A DNA stretch of 28,165 bases from Candidatus Acetothermia bacterium. Its GTDB lineage: Bacteria > Bipolaricaulota > Bipolaricaulia > M55B111. The stretch is taken from assembly GCA_046543235.1 (NCBI GenBank), contig JBKGZT010000012.1:1-28165 (forward strand). The letters run 5' to 3'. The translations under genes were made by a program, and so were the position numbers. Each line of letters starts with the position of its first letter. The stretch's first letter is position 1. This document shows positions 896 to 19,074 of this stretch, piece by piece. The notes under the pieces were generated by a model. It did not search any database, was not told the origin of the DNA, and saw only the letters and a program-made list of their open reading frames with translations.

Positions 896-3469
896 TCAAA
901 CTACGATATTTACCAGGTTGCCCGGAACGACGATGAACTTCTTGATTTCCTTTCCATCGAGCCTCTCGGTTATCCTCTCCAGCTTCAGTACCCTCTCTCG
1001 CAGGGCCTCCTCGTCACCCTCGATCTCGGTCGGAACTTCTATGTGGGCACGTATCTTGCCGTTGATCTGGACGGCGAGTTCAGTCTCTTCCTGCTTGAGG
1101 GCATCCTCCTCCCATCCGGGCCAGTCCGCTTCCATTATCGGTTTTTCATTGCCCATTCGATGCCAGAGCTCCTCGCCCATGAAGGGAGTAAACGGGGAGA
1201 TTATCAACACCAGTTTCTTTATTCCCTCCCTAAGGAGCCCTTTATCTATCTCCTCGTCGGAAATTGCTCCGTAAAACTCGTTAGTTAGCTCCATTATCGA
1301 GGATACCGCGGTGTTGAAACTAAAGTCCTCCAGGTCCTCGGTCACTTCCTTGATGGTTTCGTTTATCTTCCGCCATAAATCCTTCTCTAGATCGCTGAGA
1401 TCCCCGGGATTCAGGGCGTGCTCTTCCTCGAACAACTCCATGTGCTGTACAGCCAGCCTCCAGACCCTTGCGAGGAAACGGTGGCTCCCTTTTACGTCCT
1501 TGTCGCTCCACTCCACGTCCTTTTCCGGTGGACCTATGAAGAGAGTGTAAATCCTTTCCGTATCCGCCCCGTATTGATCAATCAGTTCCTTGGGGGAAAC
1601 CACGTTCTTTTTCGATTTCGACATCGACTCCATCGTTACATCGAGCTCTGTACCGCATTCGGGGCACTTATTCCCATCAACGACGTTTTTAGGCATGATC
1701 CAGCCGTGTTTTTCGCAGCGATATGCCTGATGCGAGATCATCCCCTGCGTAAACAGGCGCTCGAAGGGCTCCTTAAAGTCAACGAGATCTATATCTTTCA
1801 GGAACTTGGTTACGAATCGCGAATAGAGCAGGTGGAGTATGGCGTGTTCCACGCCGCCAACGTACTGATCGACGGGTAGCCAGTCGTTGGCAGTCTCGGA
1901 ATCGAATATCTTCTCGTCGTTCCCGGCCGAGAGGTAACGCAGGTAGTACCAGCTCGAGTCGACAAAGGTATCCATCGTATCCGTCTCCCTTTCCGCCTCG
2001 GCCCCGCACTCCGGACAGGTGGTCTCTACGAACTCGTCAATCTCGGAAAGCCCCTTGTTGCCGATGAATTCGACTTCGGGTAATTTCACAGGGAGTTCCT
2101 CTTCGGGAACAGGTACGACTCCACACTCCGGACAATGGACCATCGGAATGGGCGCACCCCAGTACCGCTGCCTGCTGATGAGCCAGTCCTGGAGTTTATA
2201 ATTTACCGTGAACTCGCCTTTATTACGTTCTTCCAGCCACTCCCCGATCTTCTGATAGGCGGTCTCGGAATCCAACTCGTCGAAGTCGCCGGAGTTGACT
2301 AGGTATCCCGGTTCCTCGTAAGCTTCGTCCAGCTCTCCGACCGGTTCGCCCTTCTCTGGAGCAATGACTTCCACGATAGGTATATCGTACTTTTTCGCAA
2401 AGTCGAAGTCACGCTGGTCATGGCCCGGGACGGCCATTATGGCCCCGGAACCGTACTCGGTCAGTACGAAGTTGGCGATCCATATCGGTATTTCCTCTCC
2501 AGTGGCCGGGTTGACCGCGTACTCCCCTGTAAACACCCCTTCCTTCTCGAGATCGCCGCCAGCCCTTCGGGTCTGATCGATCCGCTTGGTTTCTTCGACA
2601 AACTGGCTTAGCTCGGAACGCCTTTCCTCGTTCCGTTGGTCGGAGATCACGTCCTCCACCAGCGGGTGCTCCGGCGCAAGCGCCATAAAAGTGGCACCAA
2701 AGAGGGTATCCGGCCTGGTAGTAAACACTTCCAGATCACCGTCGCGGTTGGCCAGATCAAAGGTGATCTCCACCCCTTCGCTGCGGCCGATCCAGTCCTT
2801 CTGCATCTTCTTGACATGGTCAGGCCAGCCGTCAAGCTCCTCGAGATCGTCCAGTAACTCCTGCGCGTACTCCGTTATCCTGAAGAACCACTGTTCCAGC
2901 TGTTTTTCCTCTACGGCGGTACCACAGCGCTCGCACTCCCCGTCAATAACCTGTTCATTGGCGAGGACGGTGTCGCAGTGCGGGCAAAAGTTCACCGGGC
3001 TCTCGTCCCTGTAAGCCAAACCTTCTTCGTAAAGCTTCTGAAAGAGCCACTGAGTCCACTGATAGTACCCGGGTTCGTGGGTTCTGACCTCTCTATCCCA
3101 GTCGTATTCGATACCCCACTGCCGGAACTGTTCTTTGAAGTCGGCTATGTTCTCTTCGGTCCATTCCCCCGGCTGTACACCACGTTCTATCGCCGCGTTT
3201 TCCGCCGGCAGGCCGAAGGCGTCAAACCCCATCGGGTTCAGCACGTTCAAACCTTTCATCGTCATAAAACGTGTCAGGGTATCGCCTATTATGTAATTCC
3301 TACCGTGGCCCACGTGCATGGTTCCCGAAGGGTAGGGGAACATGTTGAGGTAGTAAAAGTTGTTCTCAATATCGTCCAGATCGGCCTTAAAGGTCTCTTC
3401 TTCGGCCCAGTAATCCCGCCATCTGTCCTCTATTTCCTCGAAGTCGTACTCTTCCGGCGCTTCATTCAT
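896..3469 (-). CDS. leuS: Leucyl-tRNA synthetase
   Basis: MFPYPSG..HVGH (HIGH motif), CP1 editing domain (FTTRPDT, GSGAIMAVPGHDQRD), DWLISRQRYWG, GGVEHAILHLLYSRF, SMSKS, C-terminal VQINGKIR. Confidence 0.98.
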   Translation of the reverse strand: MNEAPEEYDFEEIEDRWRDYWAEEETFKADLDDIENNFYYLNMFPYPSGTMHVGHGRNYIIGDTLTRFMTMKGLNVLNPMGFDAFGLPAENAAIERGVQPGEWTEENIADFKEQFRQWGIEYDWDREVRTHEPGYYQWTQWLFQKLYEEGLAYRDESPVNFCPHCDTVLANEQVIDGECERCGTAVEEKQLEQWFFRITEYAQELLDDLEELDGWPDHVKKMQKDWIGRSEGVEITFDLANRDGDLEVFTTRPDTLFGATFMALAPEHPLVEDVISDQRNEERRSELSQFVEETKRIDQTRRAGGDLEKEGVFTGEYAVNPATGEEIPIWIANFVLTEYGSGAIMAVPGHDQRDFDFAKKYDIPIVEVIAPEKGEPVGELDEAYEEPGYLVNSGDFDELDSETAYQKIGEWLEERNKGEFTVNYKLQDWLISRQRYWGAPIPMVHCPECGVVPVPEEELPVKLPEVEFIGNKGLSEIDEFVETTCPECGAEAERETDTMDTFVDSSWYYLRYLSAGNDEKIFDSETANDWLPVDQYVGGVEHAILHLLYSRFVTKFLKDIDLVDFKEPFERLFTQGMISHQAYRCEKHGWIMPKNVVDGNKCPECGTELDVTMESMSKSKKNVVSPKELIDQYGADTERIYTLFIGPPEKDVEWSDKDVKGSHRFLARVWRLAVQHMELFEEEHALNPGDLSDLEKDLWRKINETIKEVTEDLEDFSFNTAVSSIMELTNEFYGAISDEEIDKGLLREGIKKLVLIISPFTPFMGEELWHRMGNEKPIMEADWPGWEEDALKQEETELAVQINGKIRAHIEVPTEIEGDEEALRERVLKLERITERLDGKEIKKFIVVPGNLVNIVV

Positions 3470-4929
3470 TTCTTTGGTTCACCTACCAGATCTCTGGAGT
3501 ATTTTTCCGCCTCGGTTAGTATTTCATCCAGTTTCGTTTCATCGTCCATCTCGCAGTAAAGGCGCAGGAGTGGTTCGGTCCCGGAGGCCCTAATAAGCAA
3601 CCAACCGTCCGAAAAACGGAGCTTGATCCCGTCCGTAGTCTCAACGCTCTTCACCTCGTGCCCGGCGATTTCATCTGGTGGGTCCTTCTCTACCATCTCG
3701 GCGACTTCCTTACGGCCCTCCAGATGTATGTCGTTTCTCCTGTAATAATGACCTCCGTATTCCGCCAGGAGTTCGTCAACCAGCTCGGAAGGAGGCTTGC
3801 CCGCGTCGGCGACCATTTCTAGGAGAAGCAGGGCACAAAGCACGCCGTCCCGGTCGGGAATATGGTTCTTTAAACCTATCCCGCCGCTTTCCTCTCCTCC
3901 GATCAGCACGTCTTCTCTGACCATCTTCTCAGCTATAAACTTGAACCCGACGGCCGTTTCTTCTACATCTATTCCGTGCTTCTCACCTATTTTGAAGATC
4001 ATGTCGGTAAGGGGAAAATTCTTCACTGCTTTTCCTTCCCAACCCCTGGTTTCGACGAGATATTTCATCAACAGTGCGTAAGTCCTGTGAGCATCGATAA
4101 AAGAACCGTCCTGGGCCATGCTGGAAATCCTGTCCCCGTCCCCGTCGGTTACGACACCCATAACGGGTACGTCGTTCATGGCCTTCTGTTCGAGGATCTC
4201 TGCCCTCAGTGGTTCAAGGTTCTCTTCCAGTGGCTCCGGCCTGACCCCCTTGAAGCTAGGATTGTACTCCTGGCGAACGCCGACATGAGGAACGCCGAAC
4301 TCGTCCAAAACCCTGGCGGTAAATCCGGCCGCGGAACCGTACATCGAATCAATTACCGCTAGAACAGGGTTCCTCGTCATCCTTTCCTCATCGACGATTT
4401 CGGTAAGGGCTTCGACGTAATCGGAGGAAGCATCCACTCTGTTGACGCTGATATTCGGATCGACCTCCTTAAAATCCTCCGGCAGCCGGCCCTCGATCGC
4501 GTCGGTGACCTCCGGCGGCGCGGACGCACCGGATTCCAGCTTTACCTTGAAACCGTTGTATTCAGGTGGATTATGGCTGGCAGTTATCATTACTCCAGTC
4601 GCTGCGCTCCTCTCCTTCACGGAGAACGCCAGAGCAGGGGTCGGAACCATCCGTTCGGTAACGGAAGCCGGCACCCCCGAATCGATCAAAACCCTGGCCA
4701 CGAAAAGCGCGAAATCCTCGGAGGCAAACCTCCCGTCGTAACCGATTATTACCCCTTCGTCGTGAGACCTGTAGGGGGTTCCCCATTCTTCGTAAACCCG
4801 GAGCTCCTCGCGCTCCGGGGACTTCAAATAATCCGCCAGCGCTCTTGCCACCCTCCCCAGATTCTCGTAGGTATAATCGTCAGCTATAACTCCTCGCCAA
4901 CCGTCAGTACCGAAACTTACTTCTTCCAC
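3466..4929 (-). CDS. Phosphoglucomutase/phosphomannomutase family protein
   Basis: FGTDGWRG, catalytic TASHNP, metal loop DGDGDR, GGEESGG, RASGTEP; ATGA overlap with leuS. Confidence 0.95.
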   Translation of the reverse strand: MEEVSFGTDGWRGVIADDYTYENLGRVARALADYLKSPEREELRVYEEWGTPYRSHDEGVIIGYDGRFASEDFALFVARVLIDSGVPASVTERMVPTPALAFSVKERSAATGVMITASHNPPEYNGFKVKLESGASAPPEVTDAIEGRLPEDFKEVDPNISVNRVDASSDYVEALTEIVDEERMTRNPVLAVIDSMYGSAAGFTARVLDEFGVPHVGVRQEYNPSFKGVRPEPLEENLEPLRAEILEQKAMNDVPVMGVVTDGDGDRISSMAQDGSFIDAHRTYALLMKYLVETRGWEGKAVKNFPLTDMIFKIGEKHGIDVEETAVGFKFIAEKMVREDVLIGGEESGGIGLKNHIPDRDGVLCALLLLEMVADAGKPPSELVDELLAEYGGHYYRRNDIHLEGRKEVAEMVEKDPPDEIAGHEVKSVETTDGIKLRFSDGWLLIRASGTEPLLRLYCEMDDETKLDEILTEAEKYSRDLVGEPKK

Positions 4930-15497: not shown

Positions 15498-15519
15498 GAT
15501 TGACACCCTGAAAACGTCT

Positions 15520-15548
15520 TTGCATCCATAGAAAGTATATTATATTAT
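15520..15548 (+). promoter_or_regulatory. Internal promoter for ftsA-parA-ftsZ
   Basis: TTGCAT (15520-15525), 17 bp, TATTAT (15543-15548). A TTGACA also lies at 15500-15505. Confidence 0.6.
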
Positions 15549-15813
15549 TACTTAAAGTTGATAGTAGGTGGATTTACGATAGAGCGGACTTCATAAAGCT
15601 ATATAGTAGTCCGCCTGGAAAACTTTGAAAAATGGGGGCTGCTTATCTCCGTTCAGTTGGGGGATTGAGCGGGGATGGGTGAAGTCATGGTTTTGGAAAC
15701 TCCACTACAAAAATGGATTCAGGGGCAAACAAAATTTTCAAATATTTTTCCTATAACGAAGAGTTCATCAGGGATTTCGGGTTGGTTTGGCGTGATTAAT
15801 AGGTGGTGATTTA

Positions 15814-17055
15814 ATGGAAAGCGAGGATTTGACAGTGGGGCTGGATATCGGTACTACTAAAATTGTCGCTTTAGTTGGTAACGTTGTAGATGGTTCAATA
15901 GAAATAGTGGGAATAGGCCAGGCCCCTTCCAAGGGGCTGGAAAAGGGCGTCGTAGTGGATATCGGACAGGCGACGAATTCGATCAGAAAGGCGGTCAGGC
16001 AGGCGGAAAAGATGGCGGACGTGGAAATAGATTCCGTCTACGCTGGTATTACTGGCAAACACATAAACTACCTGAACAATACCGGCACCGTGTCGGTAAA
16101 CAGGTCGGACGGGGTGATCCGTCAGGAAGACGTCAGGCGCGTAATTGAAACGGCAAAGGCCATGCAGCAAATACCACCGCAGTCCGAAATGATCCACATA
16201 ATTCCCCGTCAGTTCGTGGTCGATAACCAGGAAGGTATTTCCGACCCGGTCGGCATGACGGGCACACGACTTGAAGCCGACGTTCATATCGTTACGGGAG
16301 CAACCACGGCGGTCCATAATCTAACCAGGTGTCTTGATTCGCTCGGTATCGATATAGATCAGTTAGTTCTGGAACCTCTTGCTTCTTCTCACGCCGTATT
16401 ATCCTCGGCGGAAAAGGAGCTGGGAGTGCTATTAATGGATATCGGCGGTGGGACTACGGATCTGGCAGTATTCAAAAAAGGGGATATCTGGTTTTCCAAA
16501 GTACTGCCAGTTGCAGGAGAGCACATGACCAACGATATAACCGTTGGCCTTCAAACGCCCCTGGAAGTGGCAGAACAGATCAAGGTCGAGCACGGAACGG
16601 TATTTATCGACGAAGAGAACCAGGAGGAAGAAATCGAGGTAGCCACTGTAGGAGGAGACAAGGAAAAACGAGTGCCCCTGAAAAACCTGGCAAAGGTTAT
16701 AGAGCCCAGGGTGGAAGAGATATTCGACCTAGCTTTCCAGGAGCTCGAAGACGCGGGTTATCGGGACCTGATCCCTTCCGGAGTAGTACTGTCAGGTGGC
16801 ACCTCTCTACTAAACGGGATCGTAGAATACGGGAACCGTCACTTCGACCTGCCAATTAGACGAGGATCGACCCCGGACGACATTCATGGGTTGAGGGACG
16901 TCGTGGAGTCTCCGATTTACGCCACCTCCGTTGGTCTGCTGAAATACTCCGTGGGCTCAAACGATTACATGAGAAACGGAAAAAGGACGGGTAGAGGTGG
17001 CGAAACGGTTGTTTCGGATATTTTCAGCTGGCTGGCAAAGTTCTTCCGCGGGTAA
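15814..17055 (+). CDS. ftsA: Cell division protein FtsA
   Basis: GLDIGTTKI, DIGGGTTD, GVVLSGG, YATSVGL, C-terminal amphipathic helix IFSWLAKFF; SD AGGTGGTGA. Confidence 0.97.
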   Translation: MESEDLTVGLDIGTTKIVALVGNVVDGSIEIVGIGQAPSKGLEKGVVVDIGQATNSIRKAVRQAEKMADVEIDSVYAGITGKHINYLNNTGTVSVNRSDGVIRQEDVRRVIETAKAMQQIPPQSEMIHIIPRQFVVDNQEGISDPVGMTGTRLEADVHIVTGATTAVHNLTRCLDSLGIDIDQLVLEPLASSHAVLSSAEKELGVLLMDIGGGTTDLAVFKKGDIWFSKVLPVAGEHMTNDITVGLQTPLEVAEQIKVEHGTVFIDEENQEEEIEVATVGGDKEKRVPLKNLAKVIEPRVEEIFDLAFQELEDAGYRDLIPSGVVLSGGTSLLNGIVEYGNRHFDLPIRRGSTPDDIHGLRDVVESPIYATSVGLLKYSVGSNDYMRNGKRTGRGGETVVSDIFSWLAKFFRG

Positions 17056-17120: not shown

Positions 17121-17861
17121 ATGAAAAAAATCGCCATTATCAATCAGAAAGGGGGTACCGGTAAAACTACGACCGCGGTAAACCTGGGAAAGGGGCTGGC
17201 GGATAGGGGTATTAAGACCTTATTAATTGACGTCGACCCCCAGGGAAACCTCGCGACGTGGTTCGGTAAGGACTTTGAGAGAACCCTCTACCACCTGCTG
17301 GTGGAAAACGAAACGCCGGAAAGTTGTATCGTGCAGGTGGAAGAAGATCTTTACATGATTCCGAGCGACGAATCTACCGCCCAGGCGGAAAAGATACTTA
17401 CCGGCAAAACCAGCCGGGAGACTATGCTAAAGCGTAGACTGGAAGGACTTGACTCCTACGAAATCGTAGTGCTGGACTGCCCACCGAGCTTGAGCCTACT
17501 TAATCAAAATGCACTCGTTTACGCCGAATCCGCTTTCGTTCCCGTAAGTATGGATTACCTGGCCCTTGTCGGGGTTAGAAACATCTTGAAGAACATCAAG
17601 CGGATTAACGAGCTTCTGGAGTACGAGATAGAAGTAGAGCTGGTTATACCCACGTTTTTCGATATTAGGACGAACGAAAGCAAGGAGATACTGGAGAAAC
17701 TGAAGGATCACTTCGATGGAAAAGTAACCGAACCGATCAGGACAAACGTCCGGCTCTCCGAATCTGCAAGCTATAACCAATCTATTTTTGATTACGCTCC
17801 CAATTCCCACGGAGCCGAGGACTACGAAAAGTTAGTAGAAAGGGTGATAGAAGATGCATAA
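17121..17861 (+). CDS. ParA/Soj-family ATPase
   Basis: Deviant Walker A NQKGGTGKTT, DVDPQGN, Walker B LDCPPSL, Soj-like TFFDIRT and IRTNVRLSE motifs; no MinD-type C-terminal membrane helix. Confidence 0.93.
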   Translation: MKKIAIINQKGGTGKTTTAVNLGKGLADRGIKTLLIDVDPQGNLATWFGKDFERTLYHLLVENETPESCIVQVEEDLYMIPSDESTAQAEKILTGKTSRETMLKRRLEGLDSYEIVVLDCPPSLSLLNQNALVYAESAFVPVSMDYLALVGVRNILKNIKRINELLEYEIEVELVIPTFFDIRTNESKEILEKLKDHFDGKVTEPIRTNVRLSESASYNQSIFDYAPNSHGAEDYEKLVERVIEDA

Positions 17862-19074
17862 AAAAGAAAAATCAGTGGGTAACGATCCCCTTGACGGGGT
17901 CATGGAAGATTTCTATAGATCCGGTTCAAAGGAGGAGGATAACTCATCTTCCGAAGACGAAAAAGCTTCTGGCGACCCAGGAAAGCAAGCAAAACACACC
18001 TCCAAGGAACCGGATTCCTACAACCCCGACGATTACAACCTCGCTAATTTAATGGTTATCGGTGTCGGCGGTGGGGGAAACAATGCCGTAAACCGGATGT
18101 CCGAAGCCGGAGTAGGCGGAGTGGAGCTAGTTTCCATAAACACCGACGCCCAGGTCCTGGAGATAAATAATGCGGATCGATACATCCAGATCGGGAAAGA
18201 CCTGACGGGAGGACTGGGTGCGGGCGGCAATCCGGAAATCGGGCGGGAGGCAGCTCTGGAAAGCCAGGAGACGATCGAAAAACTGCTGCAGGGCGTGGAC
18301 ATGCTATTCATAACATGTGGAATGGGCGGGGGAACCGGTACGGGTGCCACCCCCGTAATCGCCGAAGCCGCCCAGCAAATGGAAATCCTTACAACCGGCA
18401 TAGTAACAAAGCCTTTCTCTTTTGAGGGCCAGGAACGGGCGGAAAAAGCCCACCGGGGCCTGAAGAACCTGGTCGACAGGGTCGATACGATAATCACGAT
18501 ATCCAACGATCGGTTGCTGGAGGTCGCTCCTGGGGACATATCGTTAATAAAAGCTTTTGGCATGGTCGACGAAATACTCATGCAGGGAGTCAAAGGAATC
18601 TCCGAATTGATCACGGTTCCCGGGATGATTAACCTGGATTTTGCCGATCTCGAGAACGCGATGAAAAACGGTGGTCCTGCACTAATGGGTATAGGGGAGG
18701 CAGAAGGGGACGATAAAACCGAAAAAGCCGCGGAGAACGCGATATCTTCCCCTCTTCTTGAAGGTTCCATCAAGGGGGCCCGGAACATCATCATGAACTT
18801 CACGGGGAATCCCGAGCTATCCCTGGAGGAAGTCACGAGAGCGGCCGAACTCGTCAAGGGTCAGGCCGACGAGGAAGCGGATATAATGTTCGGTACCACC
18901 ATAAAAGACGGCCTGGAGACGGTAAAGCTAACTATAATTGCAACCGGCTACAATAGCCGACAAGAGGGAAGCGATGAAGAAGCTATCAGAAACATCGCCC
19001 TCGCGGAGGATGAAAACGGCAACCTGGCCGACGAAGACGACCTGGATACCCCGACTTTCCTGAGAAAAGGTTAA
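17854..19074 (+). CDS. ftsZ: Cell division GTPase FtsZ with ~60-aa N-terminal extension
   Basis: VIGVGGGGNNAV, GLGAGG.P, tubulin signature GMGGGTGTG, T7 loop INLDFAD, C-terminal peptide LDTPTFLRK; SD GGGTGA inside the parA end; ATGCATAA 8-nt overlap with the parA stop. Confidence 0.97.
   Translation: MHKKEKSVGNDPLDGVMEDFYRSGSKEEDNSSSEDEKASGDPGKQAKHTSKEPDSYNPDDYNLANLMVIGVGGGGNNAVNRMSEAGVGGVELVSINTDAQVLEINNADRYIQIGKDLTGGLGAGGNPEIGREAALESQETIEKLLQGVDMLFITCGMGGGTGTGATPVIAEAAQQMEILTTGIVTKPFSFEGQERAEKAHRGLKNLVDRVDTIITISNDRLLEVAPGDISLIKAFGMVDEILMQGVKGISELITVPGMINLDFADLENAMKNGGPALMGIGEAEGDDKTEKAAENAISSPLLEGSIKGARNIIMNFTGNPELSLEEVTRAAELVKGQADEEADIMFGTTIKDGLETVKLTIIATGYNSRQEGSDEEAIRNIALAEDENGNLADEDDLDTPTFLRKG

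Follow-up and report, generated by a model that had tools for sequence, protein, structure and literature searches.

The FtsZ protein encoded in the window, the whole stretch of 28,165 nucleotides of DNA that was analysed, begins with a short N-terminal peptide, here called the tip, which resembles the N-terminus of a small adaptor protein encoded directly behind an orthologous ParA in another Bipolaricaulia family. We consider it likely that a ParG-type adaptor donated its ParA-partner peptide to FtsZ as this tip, and that FtsZ polymers thereby engage the probably nucleoid-bound ParA directly. The organisms concerned, in the case of the FtsZ tip one clade of uncultured Bipolaricaulota, are known from metagenome-assembled genomes only.

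Three genes follow each other on the forward strand of the window in the order ftsA, parA and ftsZ. The first (15814..17055) encodes a protein of 413 aa matching Pfam FtsA (140.6 bits) and SHS2_FTSA (101.1 bits). Between it and ftsZ lies parA (17121..17861), which encodes a small Soj/ParF-type deviant Walker A ATPase of 246 aa, and the reading frame at 17854..19074 encodes an FtsZ of 406 aa. As described in an earlier sequence-only reading of this DNA, the ATG of ftsZ overlaps the stop codon of the upstream ParA-type gene (ATGCATAA) and is preceded at a distance of 7 nt by an SD-like motif (AAGGGTG, of the AGAAAGGGTG type), read from the sequence at 17838..17846 on the forward strand within the 3′ end of parA; this motif is kept in 17/17 related loci. 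Counts obtained in a promoter and terminator scan were within the range of shuffled sequence.

Within FtsZ, all on the forward strand, the tip comprises residues 1–23 (17854..17922) and consists of a basic head (K3–K6) followed by SVGxDPLDGVMEDFY(R/K)S. It is joined by an acidic linker of low complexity (residues 24–58; 17923..18027), variable in sequence and length, to the GTPase core and C-terminal domain (residues 59–377; 18028..18984). These match TIGR00065, the NCBIfam model for FtsZ, with 390 bits (cut-off 295.2) over residues 57–377, Pfam Tubulin with 166.7 bits from residue 66 onwards and FtsZ_C with 92.7 bits. The remaining part (18985..19074) contains the C-terminal linker, the conserved C-terminal peptide (DLD.PTFLR) and the stop codon. 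GGGTGTG and NLDFAD are invariant among the FtsZ orthologs (n = 16), as are D396, L397, P400, T401, F402 and R404; we take these to be the GTP-binding signature, the T7 loop and the conserved C-terminal peptide of FtsZ, the last presumably being the usual FtsA-binding peptide. The first 60 residues agree exactly with those of the earlier reading, which had counted all of them as additional to the core. The extension is real, but in relatives lacking it FtsZ begins 8–20 residues ahead of the GVGGGG motif, and from these short N-termini and the starts of the model matches its size is therefore about 45–55 residues.

The tip and the inserted parA occur together. The gene order ftsA-parA-ftsZ and the tip were both found in 17/17 loci of genera g1 and g2 of family f1, whereas neither was present in 13/13 loci from neighbouring lineages, namely the third f1 genus (g3) and six other families, the latter contributing 12 of the 13; in all 13, ftsA directly precedes ftsZ. 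This is the pattern that the sequence-only reading had anticipated. As the tip-bearing FtsZ loci form one clade, they represent one evolutionary event, and the co-occurrence within the clade is not independent evidence. A pattern scan of genome contigs gave no wider spread of the FtsZ tip, with 16 loci confirmed out of 40 pattern matches, all belonging to the same clade. The titles of these 16 loci name Bipolaricaulota (7) and 'uncultured Thermotogae' (9).

Nine tip residues (M1, S7, G9, D11, P12, L13, M17, F20 and Y21) are invariant in the 17 sequences from the two genera, clearly demonstrating conservation among homologues, which had been left as a point to be checked. At least one Lys is present within residues 3–6 in 17/17 FtsZ tips. 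Number and position of the lysines vary, one ortholog carrying a single Lys across residues 2–6, and the pN/pS of the basic head is 0.60. With such variation in the head, no essential Arg/Lys 'finger' is evident. The linker is 28–40 aa long in the 16 orthologs, consists to 77% of E, S, G, D, K, N and P, and has a net charge between 0 and −9. An AF2 model of FtsZ (16-row alignment) assigned the linker a pLDDT of 20–27, but the whole model was poor (mean pLDDT 45.5), so that low confidence at residues 1–66 says little.

Orthologs of the window ParA with 59–64% identity (E 1e-94 to 1e-102) were detected in 16/18 f1 genomes and in 17/18 genomes of family f5, and within the phylum in these families only; the next-best ParAs of the phylum share at most 41% identity. 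One of the 17 f5 orthologs is a contig-edge fragment. The two families are not sisters in a tree of the FtsZ core, and in f5 the parA ortholog is located away from ftsZ. There, a gene for a product of 83–86 aa follows parA in 13/13 loci, directly at its stop or overlapping it. The product is built from a tip of the form (K/R)RSI(A/G)HDPL..EIM.(D/E)FY(K/R)P with conserved R4/R5, a variable linker of 9–32 aa and a ribbon-helix-helix (RHH)-like domain. A start of the type K..(L/V)G.DPL, which the sequence-only reading had named for small proteins downstream of orphan ParAs, is indeed seen in these f5 adaptors. Pfam RHH_3 matched 14/14 and RHH_1 13/14 adaptors (best E 5.9e-5 and 0.0021, respectively), the two adaptors with listed scores falling below the gathering cut-off; the RHH assignment rests on these below-cut-off matches together with the strand-helix-helix pattern of the sequence. 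A profile search of the PDB with the adaptor gave 0 matches at E ≤ 10, so that no sequence relation to ParG or any PDB chain was detected, and a Foldseek search of the PDB with its AF2 monomer (pLDDT 67) gave none at E ≤ 0.001, the top match being NikR with a non-significant E of 1.5. The surroundings of the f5 genes contained no convincing centromere-like repeats; only short two-copy repeats lie upstream of parA in three f5 loci and in the window.

Profile comparisons clearly connected the two tips. Aligning the FtsZ tip with the adaptor N-terminus by hhalign resulted in a probability of 96.7% (E 4.5e-10), and BLASTP of the FtsZ tip against P0050, an NC10-labelled tip protein, showed 15/27 identical residues (E 2e-6). 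Following the suggestion to search with the peptide behind ParAs, 184 genomes from the phylum were searched blind with an HMM built exclusively from FtsZ tips, which matched 16/18 genomes of f1 and 13/18 of f5 but 0/148 of nine other families. Each matching genome contained one site, on the contig of the ParA ortholog. In the 12 f5 genomes whose ParA match is full-length, the site lies 18–61 nt downstream of the end of that match, and in f5 the site corresponded to a small RHH-like protein gene in 9/9 genomes in which the locus was read. Conversely, the adaptor HMM yielded seven matches in 19 f1 genomes, all at the FtsZ N-terminus and none with an RHH domain; the two HMMs find each other's gene reciprocally and genome-wide. 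Consistent with the earlier proposal that FtsZ acts with no separate adaptor, neither search detected a further tip-bearing protein in the clade with the FtsZ tip.

A metagenome scan confirmed three loci out of 234 pattern matches, with a ParA ortholog (59–62% identity) directly upstream in 3/3. Ten matches were obtained in a profile search of 1.84e9 representatives, comprising six small RHH-type proteins, one FtsZ fragment and three long repeat proteins. Two of the latter, P0047 and P0051, were rejected as tip carriers, their resemblance being read as repeat-boosted chance likeness; the third is P0048. The matches listed from a search of 5.8e9 proteins, in which up to 8000 candidates were considered and ten matched, were all FtsZ of 403–408 aa, which is weak evidence against fusions of the tip to other cargos. 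The tip was not seen on other cargo proteins among those listed matches nor, the three repeat proteins aside, among the 1.84e9 representatives. It is carried by two different RHH-type C-terminal domains and by FtsZ. That tip and adaptor N-terminus are homologous, and that the tip is strictly adjacent to the ParA ortholog, supports the fusion of an adaptor peptide to FtsZ suggested in the sequence-only reading.

The ParA of the window matches Pfam AAA_31 with 164 bits (cut-off 27) and CbiA with 80 bits; its scores against NCBIfam ParA_partition NF041546 (100.6 bits, cut-off 180) and MinD TIGR01968 (43.6 bits, cut-off 212.9) remain below the thresholds. Judged by these profiles, it is a ParA-type ATPase outside every named equivalog. 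The best PDB match is Soj of T. thermophilus (1wcv, E 3.3e-42). All 29 orthologs share K10, G11, G12, T13, K15, T16, D37, D39, D119, R183 and R211, and the deviant Walker A motif with the signature lysine (K10-G-G-T-G-K15-T), the Walker A′ residues D37/D39 and the Walker B residue D119 are all kept. R183 and R211 align with R182 and R211 of TtSoj, which correspond to BsSoj R189/R218, described in PMC6393308 as required for DNA and nucleoid binding. Because these arginines of the Soj DNA patch are kept, the window ParA would bind DNA and its ATP-bound dimers are probably located on the nucleoid. Nevertheless, the protein is acidic (pI 4.6–5.3 versus 6.1–7.1 in f5), so DNA binding is not assured. 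W47 and F48, in the loop following DPQGN, are invariant and by analogy may act like Phe52 of HpParA. With the window ParA as query, no second ParA-type match was found in its own genome. Two further CbiA-family genes of the genome were rejected as ParA or MinD proper; they encode MinD-superfamily ATPases, one of them with a ferredoxin-type (PorD/KorD-like) match.

A complex of two ParA chains, ATP, Mg and FtsZ residues 1–66 was predicted, following the proposal to model the FtsZ N-terminus with the ATP-bound ParA dimer. The score was 0.49 (runs 0.49, 0.45 and 0.51) compared to 0.00 for the best of three controls, the runs sharing at least 57% of contacts at a partner pLDDT of at least 40. In the calibration, the mark was passed by 58/80 solved complexes and 2/110 mismatched pairs, and passing scores of ≤0.60 came from only seven of the 80 solved complexes and from both passing mismatches. 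Since ParA-peptide complexes have already been solved, the pass may also reflect likeness to those. The model supports a direct ParA-tip contact only weakly.

On these grounds, the tip would once have been the N-terminal part of a small adaptor of the ParG type, consisting of tip, flexible linker and RHH domain, as encoded directly behind the orthologous ParA in f5. An insertion between ftsA and ftsZ in the common ancestor of g1 and g2 would have brought parA and the tip- and linker-coding 5′ portion of the adaptor gene in front of ftsZ, in frame, and FtsZ would have taken over the place of the RHH DNA-binding domain. A flexible arm of about 35 residues would then connect every FtsZ subunit to a ParA-binding tip, making FtsZ polymers multivalent clients of ParA-ATP dimers, which, being probably on the nucleoid, would couple Z-ring placement to it. 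With the C-terminal peptide at the membrane anchor, the N-terminal arm would face the cell interior. By analogy with ParG and ParB, the f5 adaptor would contact its ParA through the tip. On FtsZ, the tip would bind ParA physically and stimulate its ATPase, with the FtsZ filaments as putative cargo.

Such an interaction would presumably affect ring placement, and we favour PomZ-like positive positioning at mid-nucleoid. ParB_N (PF02195) was found neither in the window's own genome (87% complete) nor in any of 18 f1 genomes, while 16 of the 184 phylum genomes contain a match over the cut-off; a true MinD (TIGR01968) over the cut-off occurs in 0/184, and MinC_C is absent from the own genome. Somewhat more tentatively, a type Ib adaptor domain swap might have created a self-positioning two-gene ring, in which FtsZ polymers act as cargo and multivalent activator at once and the ParA gradient centres the ring without Min, Noc/SlmA, ParB, MipZ or a Pom-type scaffold.

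The same binding might also have the opposite sign. Acting in a MipZ-like or nucleoid-occlusion-like manner, nucleoid-bound ParA-ATP dimers would trap FtsZ by its tip and either sequester it over DNA or destabilise it there, confining rings to places where ParA is scarce. As neither MinC nor true MinD nor a ParB/Noc-type protein was found, an inhibitor of misplaced rings would otherwise be missing, and ParA does match Pfam MipZ over residues 4–144 (34.2 bits). However, this match is partial and far weaker than that to AAA_31 or Soj, the tip stems from a cargo-type, partition-like pair in which the partner is moved rather than inhibited, and there is no sign in the sequence of an inhibitory contact with the GTPase core. 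We thus regard ParA as an unlikely negative regulator of FtsZ here.

Alternatively, the tip might serve another function shared by FtsZ and the adaptors, such as self-association, polymerisation control or binding of a third factor, with ParA recognising something else. For FtsZ, conserved N-terminal peptides that act in polymerisation are known, as in Anabaena (PMC6175996), the basic head is poorly conserved, and the complex model speaks only weakly for a contact. Nevertheless, the sole common feature of the tip genes is the orthologous ParA immediately upstream (17/17 in f1, 13/13 in f5 and 3/3 in metagenomes), and the tip occurs on two RHH-type domains as well as on FtsZ. A constant upstream ParA combined with varied domains behind the tip argues for a portable module aimed at one constant partner, and a tip unrelated to ParA contact appears improbable.

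Translation of ftsZ starts at ATG 17854. The reading frame opens just one codon ahead of this ATG, and one relative uses a GTG start at the unchanged position. In 16 genes, pN/pS was 0.10 for tip codons 7–23 and 0.12 for codons 7–16, which lie 5′ of the alternative ATG 17902, compared to 0.13 in the GTPase core, with the linker reaching 0.70; at codons 7–16, pS was 0.78, with synonymous sites near saturation. Codons ahead of ATG 17902 hence show a core-like pN/pS, indicating purifying selection on a translated tip, and a start at 17902 or later, which would have removed the basis of the sequence-only reading, is excluded. Although internal ATGs exist at FtsZ residues 17 and 67, an annotation or assembly artefact, with translation from ATG 17902 or the M67 region and the upstream codons kept as RNA or as the parA 3′ end, is hardly credible given this low pN/pS despite the high pS, the parA overlap of only 8 nt, and a frame, SD-like motif and start position conserved across 17 independent assemblies.

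The proposed arrangement agrees with related systems described in PMC7993993 and PMC11229316, where partners of ParA/MinD ATPases act via a short N-terminal peptide, positively charged and carried on a flexible arm, and where ParG consists of a flexible N-terminus and an RHH domain. The cargo can also contain the ParA partner as one of its own components (PMC10241942). In HpParB, a Lys/Arg peptide (residues 1–10) binds near the HpParA dimer interface (PMC11229316). The f5 pair resembles ParF-ParG of plasmid TP228 (type Ib), a small ParA and an RHH centromere-binding protein whose flexible N-terminal tail activates the ATPase, in that a small ParA lacking an N-terminal DNA-binding domain is followed by a protein composed of peptide, linker and RHH-like domain. 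In contrast to ParF-ParG, FtsZ stands in place of the RHH domain in the window, no RHH-bearing homolog was found in the window or in 19 f1 genomes, and the locus is situated on genome contigs with conserved neighbours. The earlier comparison with ParA activators held in part: a ParG-type (type Ib, RHH) adaptor, rather than ParB/Spo0J, proved to be the closest analogue. No ParB_N was found, and the tip is marked by a motif of its own, S-V/I-G/A-x-D-P-L ... V/I-M-x-D-F-Y. Among solved structures, Soj is nearest to the window ParA.

In Caulobacter, a bacterium without Min, ring placement depends on the ParA-like ATPase MipZ, which targets FtsZ directly. ParB determines the position of MipZ, and MipZ inhibits FtsZ without any peptide on the latter. 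Unlike in this MipZ-ParB-FtsZ system, no ParB_N was found here and the window ParA is only a partial MipZ match. For PomXYZ of Myxococcus xanthus, PMC7993993 describes a nucleoid-bound ParA/MinD ATPase that sets the division site, a 22-residue N-terminal peptide of its partner that suffices for ATPase activation, and contacts of PomZ and PomY with FtsZ. There, the cargo is a separate PomX/PomY scaffold of ~15 MDa which recruits FtsZ, whereas here the peptide resides on FtsZ itself and no further tip-bearing adaptor was seen. A lineage-specific conserved N-terminal extension of FtsZ is also described for heterocyst-forming cyanobacteria (PMC6175996); that peptide affects polymerisation and has no reported ParA link. 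The present extension, by contrast, is linked both to a neighbouring ParA and to a family of adaptors. No description of a ParA-partner peptide on FtsZ was found in the literature searched.

ParA/MinD ATPases reach their cargos via small adaptors with an N-terminal peptide. To our knowledge, contact of such ATPases with FtsZ either runs through intermediates (MinC, PomXY) or is inhibitory (MipZ). In the present clade, FtsZ appears to have incorporated the adaptor peptide, and no simpler connection between a ParA gradient and the division ring would yet be known. The locus represents a natural case of modular rewiring, in which the same ParA ortholog, tip and linker are followed either by an RHH domain or by FtsZ, and which is clear because both states survive in living lineages. 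It might also offer a natural template for minimal synthetic positioning systems. If the proposed reading is true, a DNA-segregation motor has been rewired to the cytokinetic ring, and ring placement in the absence of Min, Noc or ParB would become addressable with two proteins and one peptide.

The division and cell-wall cluster in the window comprises murD, ftsW, murG, murC, murB, ftsA (15814-17055), a ParA-type gene of 246 aa (17121-17861) and ftsZ (17854-19074). The murB-ftsA gap of 316 bp (15498-15813), which lies at the usual place of ftsQ in such clusters, contained no ftsQ-like gene and no + strand ORF of at least 50 aa. The start codon of ftsZ, an ATG, shares bases with the stop codon of parA (ATGCATAA) and is preceded by an SD-like AAGGGTG 7 nt upstream; both features, noted in the sequence-only reading, were read in the sequence, and the first 60 FtsZ residues quoted there agreed exactly. 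FtsZ matches TIGR00065 from residue 57 (390 bits, cut-off 295.2) and Pfam Tubulin from residue 66, and retains the usual C-terminal peptide. In front of this core stand a tip (residues 1-23, 17854-17922) and a low-complexity linker of 28-40 residues with a net charge of 0 to -9, made up to 77% of E, S, G, D, K, N and P.

A search of 41 related genomes yielded 30 ftsZ loci, and comparison of their FtsZ N-termini, proposed earlier as a check, demonstrated that tip and parA occur together. FtsZ of all 17 loci from genera g1 and g2, our own genome counted, is headed by the consensus M-x-(K-rich)-S-V/I-G-x-D-P-L-D/E-x-V/I-M-x-D/N-F-Y-K/R/Q-S/P with nine invariant positions, and the same 17 loci carry parA between ftsA and ftsZ (one copy, at a contig edge, is visible only in its final 21 residues). 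In the 13 loci of g3, a third genus of the same family (f1), and of six other families, ftsA adjoins ftsZ, and parA and tip are both absent. In a tree of the FtsZ core, g1 and g2 formed one clade (support 100/100, branch 0.55) with g3 outside. The FtsZ-tip fusion is one clade and one evolutionary event, for which reason the co-occurrence alone proves little.

Selection on the tip bore out a start at 17854 and not at ATG 17902. Across 16 genes, pN/pS was 0.10 for codons 7-23, 0.12 for codons 7-16, which lie ahead of ATG 17902, and 0.13 for the GTPase core, as compared to 0.70 for the linker and 0.60 for residues 2-6, with synonymous sites near saturation in this comparison. Protein-level selection on the tip is as strong as on the enzyme core; the tip is therefore selected as protein and ftsZ starts at 17854, the value for codons 7-16 ruling out ATG 17902. 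The basic head of the tip is loosely conserved. Tip-bearing ftsZ genes start with ATG (16) or GTG (1), and in the g1 and g2 loci the frame opens 1-2 codons upstream of the start.

Using the window ParA as query against 184 genomes of the phylum, close orthologs outside f1 (59-64% identity, E 1e-94 to 1e-102) were detected only in f5, another Bipolaricaulia family, where 17 of 18 genomes carry one (in one case a contig-edge fragment); the next-best ParAs in the phylum reached at most 41% identity. The f5 gene is not near ftsZ. It is preceded by larC in 9 of 13 loci and followed directly in all 13 by a gene of 83-86 residues overlapping or abutting its stop. The encoded protein, referred to as adaptor, consists of a tip, (K/R)RSI(A/G)HDPL..EIM.(D/E)FY(K/R)P, joined through a short, variable linker to a strand-helix-helix segment. 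This C-terminal segment matched Pfam RHH_3 in 14/14 members (best E 5.9e-5) and RHH_1 in 13/14 (best E 0.0021); both members with listed RHH scores, the ORF of f5 locus L072 and the database protein P0009, fell under the gathering cut-offs, and a structure search with the adaptor did not confirm the RHH fold. The family is small, with 34 clusters in 5.8e9 proteins, all "hypothetical", unnamed and without Pfam domains. An ORF of 329-343 aa follows the parA-adaptor pair in 13/13 f5 loci (L070-L082, ~2540-3600, parA orientation); Pfam identified the one in L072 (2573-3595) as an MGMT-type DNA-binding domain fused to endonuclease V, the others being matched by likeness of N-terminal sequence. As for centromere-like repeats, only short two-copy repeats were seen upstream of parA in three f5 loci and the window.

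When a profile of the 17 FtsZ tips was aligned to one of 14 adaptors, the probability was 96.7% (E 4.5e-10, 27 columns), and BLASTP of FtsZ residues 1-60 against P0050, a divergent database adaptor, gave 15/27 identities (E 2e-6). An HMM from FtsZ tips alone, run blind over six-frame translations of the 184 genomes, found FtsZ in 16 of 18 f1 genomes and no match in 148 genomes of nine other families. This search for the peptide in genes downstream of ParAs, suggested from the sequence, did find a ParA-adjacent gene in 13 of 18 f5 genomes, with one site each (18.7-26.8 bits, per-genome E 2e-5 to 3e-3), always on the same contig as the ParA ortholog; where the ParA match was full-length (12 genomes), the site lay 18-61 nt downstream of its end. 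Three genomes of genus g12 were missed, and the adaptor was seen by reading in two g12 loci. Conversely, an adaptor HMM over 19 f1 genomes gave seven matches, every one an FtsZ N-terminus and none an RHH-bearing tip protein, in agreement with the earlier claim that a separate adaptor is lacking.

Of 234 pattern matches in a metagenome scan, 3 were confirmed; each of these loci, one in a different neighbourhood, has a ParA ortholog (59-62% identity) directly upstream. P0050 (83 aa) carries the tip K-S-V-G-N-D-P-L, nearly the same as that of the window, with a second, different RHH-like C-terminus. Since one member of its cluster is labelled candidate division NC10, the tip family extends past Bipolaricaulota. 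No other cargo type with the tip was found among the protein-database matches listed. Two long metagenome repeat proteins, P0047 (1733 aa) and P0051 (827 aa), contain many tip-like units, RR-x-x-AHDP(L/I)QK-x-MQ in one and VDPLDKQMSDIYR in the other; their likeness is probably repeat-boosted chance, curious all the same.

The window ParA retains the deviant Walker A box with its signature lysine and the Walker A' and Walker B aspartates. R183 and R211 align with TtSoj R182 and R211, described as part of a basic DNA-binding patch and equivalent to BsSoj R189/R218, required for nucleoid binding (PMC6393308). An extra C-terminal segment past the Soj-like core, as a possible membrane helix, is absent. 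With this query it is the sole ParA-type gene found in its genome (87% complete), in which ParB_N and MinC_C were not detected. ParB_N was likewise found in 0/18 f1 genomes and above cut-off in 16/184 genomes of the phylum, and MinD (TIGR01968) above cut-off in 0/184. Apart from this parA, the genome has just two noteworthy CbiA-family genes, neighbouring MinD-superfamily P-loop ATPases of 290 and 302 aa (G000:C9:67-1844, locus L033), which are not ParA or MinD proper; the 290-aa protein has a ferredoxin-type (PorD/KorD-like) match. Many families (f3, f4, f6, f8) and genus g3 possess two FtsZ paralogs of 42-52% identity, g1 and g2 one. ParA of f1 is markedly more acidic (pI 4.6-5.3) than the f5 ortholog (pI 6.1-7.1), and FtsZ of the tip-bearing clade stands on a long branch of 0.55 changes per column. 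These traits may stem from adaptation to the changed partner, from a proteome-wide shift toward acidity, or from both.

Short positively charged N-terminal peptides are described as acting on ParA/MinD ATPases in ParB, SopB, ParG, MinE, PomX and probably TlpT and McdB, 20-52 residues being enough for ATPase activation (PMC7993993); in HpParB, residues 1-10 make their contact close to where the two ParA subunits of the dimer meet (PMC11229316), and a partner can itself be a cargo component (PMC10241942). The f5 adaptor is laid out like ParG of plasmid TP228, whose flexible N-terminus activates ParA and whose RHH domain binds DNA (PMC11229316, PMC7993993), and by analogy its tip would be the ParA contact of the pair. 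If FtsZ is held at the membrane by its C-terminal peptide, the N-terminal arms would face inward to the nucleoid, and polymers would present the tip in many copies, which would bind and probably stimulate ParA-ATP dimers on DNA, coupling ring placement to the nucleoid. PomZ-like centring appears somewhat more likely than MipZ-like or occlusion-like inhibition.

The proposed modelling of a ParA dimer with ATP and the tip (ParA x2, ATP, Mg, FtsZ residues 1-66, custom alignments) scored 0.49 (runs 0.49, 0.45, 0.51), whereas the best of three controls reached 0.00; the runs shared at least 57% of contacts, with a partner pLDDT of at least 40. In calibration the mark was met by 58/80 solved complexes and 2/110 mismatched pairs, and at scores up to 0.60, the band into which this complex falls, by just 7/80 solved complexes and both passing mismatches; the prediction weakly supports binding, and likeness to solved ParA-peptide complexes may contribute to the score. 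In the AF2 models of FtsZ and of the adaptor, the V/I-M-x-D/E-F stretch of the tip is predicted, at low confidence, as a short helix spanning residues 16-20 and 16-22, respectively.

Because g3 and all other families lack the tip, ancestral ftsZ had none; as the ParA-adaptor pair stands alone elsewhere, the simplest history is an in-frame insertion, ahead of ftsZ, of parA together with the 5' portion of the adaptor gene, encoding tip and linker. The stop/start codon coupling would have been kept, with FtsZ substituted for the RHH domain. The FtsZ tree does not place f1 and f5 as sisters, and the module may have arrived by transfer or been lost elsewhere. In the literature searched on ParA, FtsZ and Bipolaricaulota/Acetothermia we came across neither an FtsZ bearing a ParA-partner peptide nor this order of genes. 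Both the parts and the principle are known already; FtsZ as a direct, covalently tagged ParA client, essentially what the sequence-only reading had proposed in making FtsZ filaments cargo and activator of the ParA, would be new, if true.
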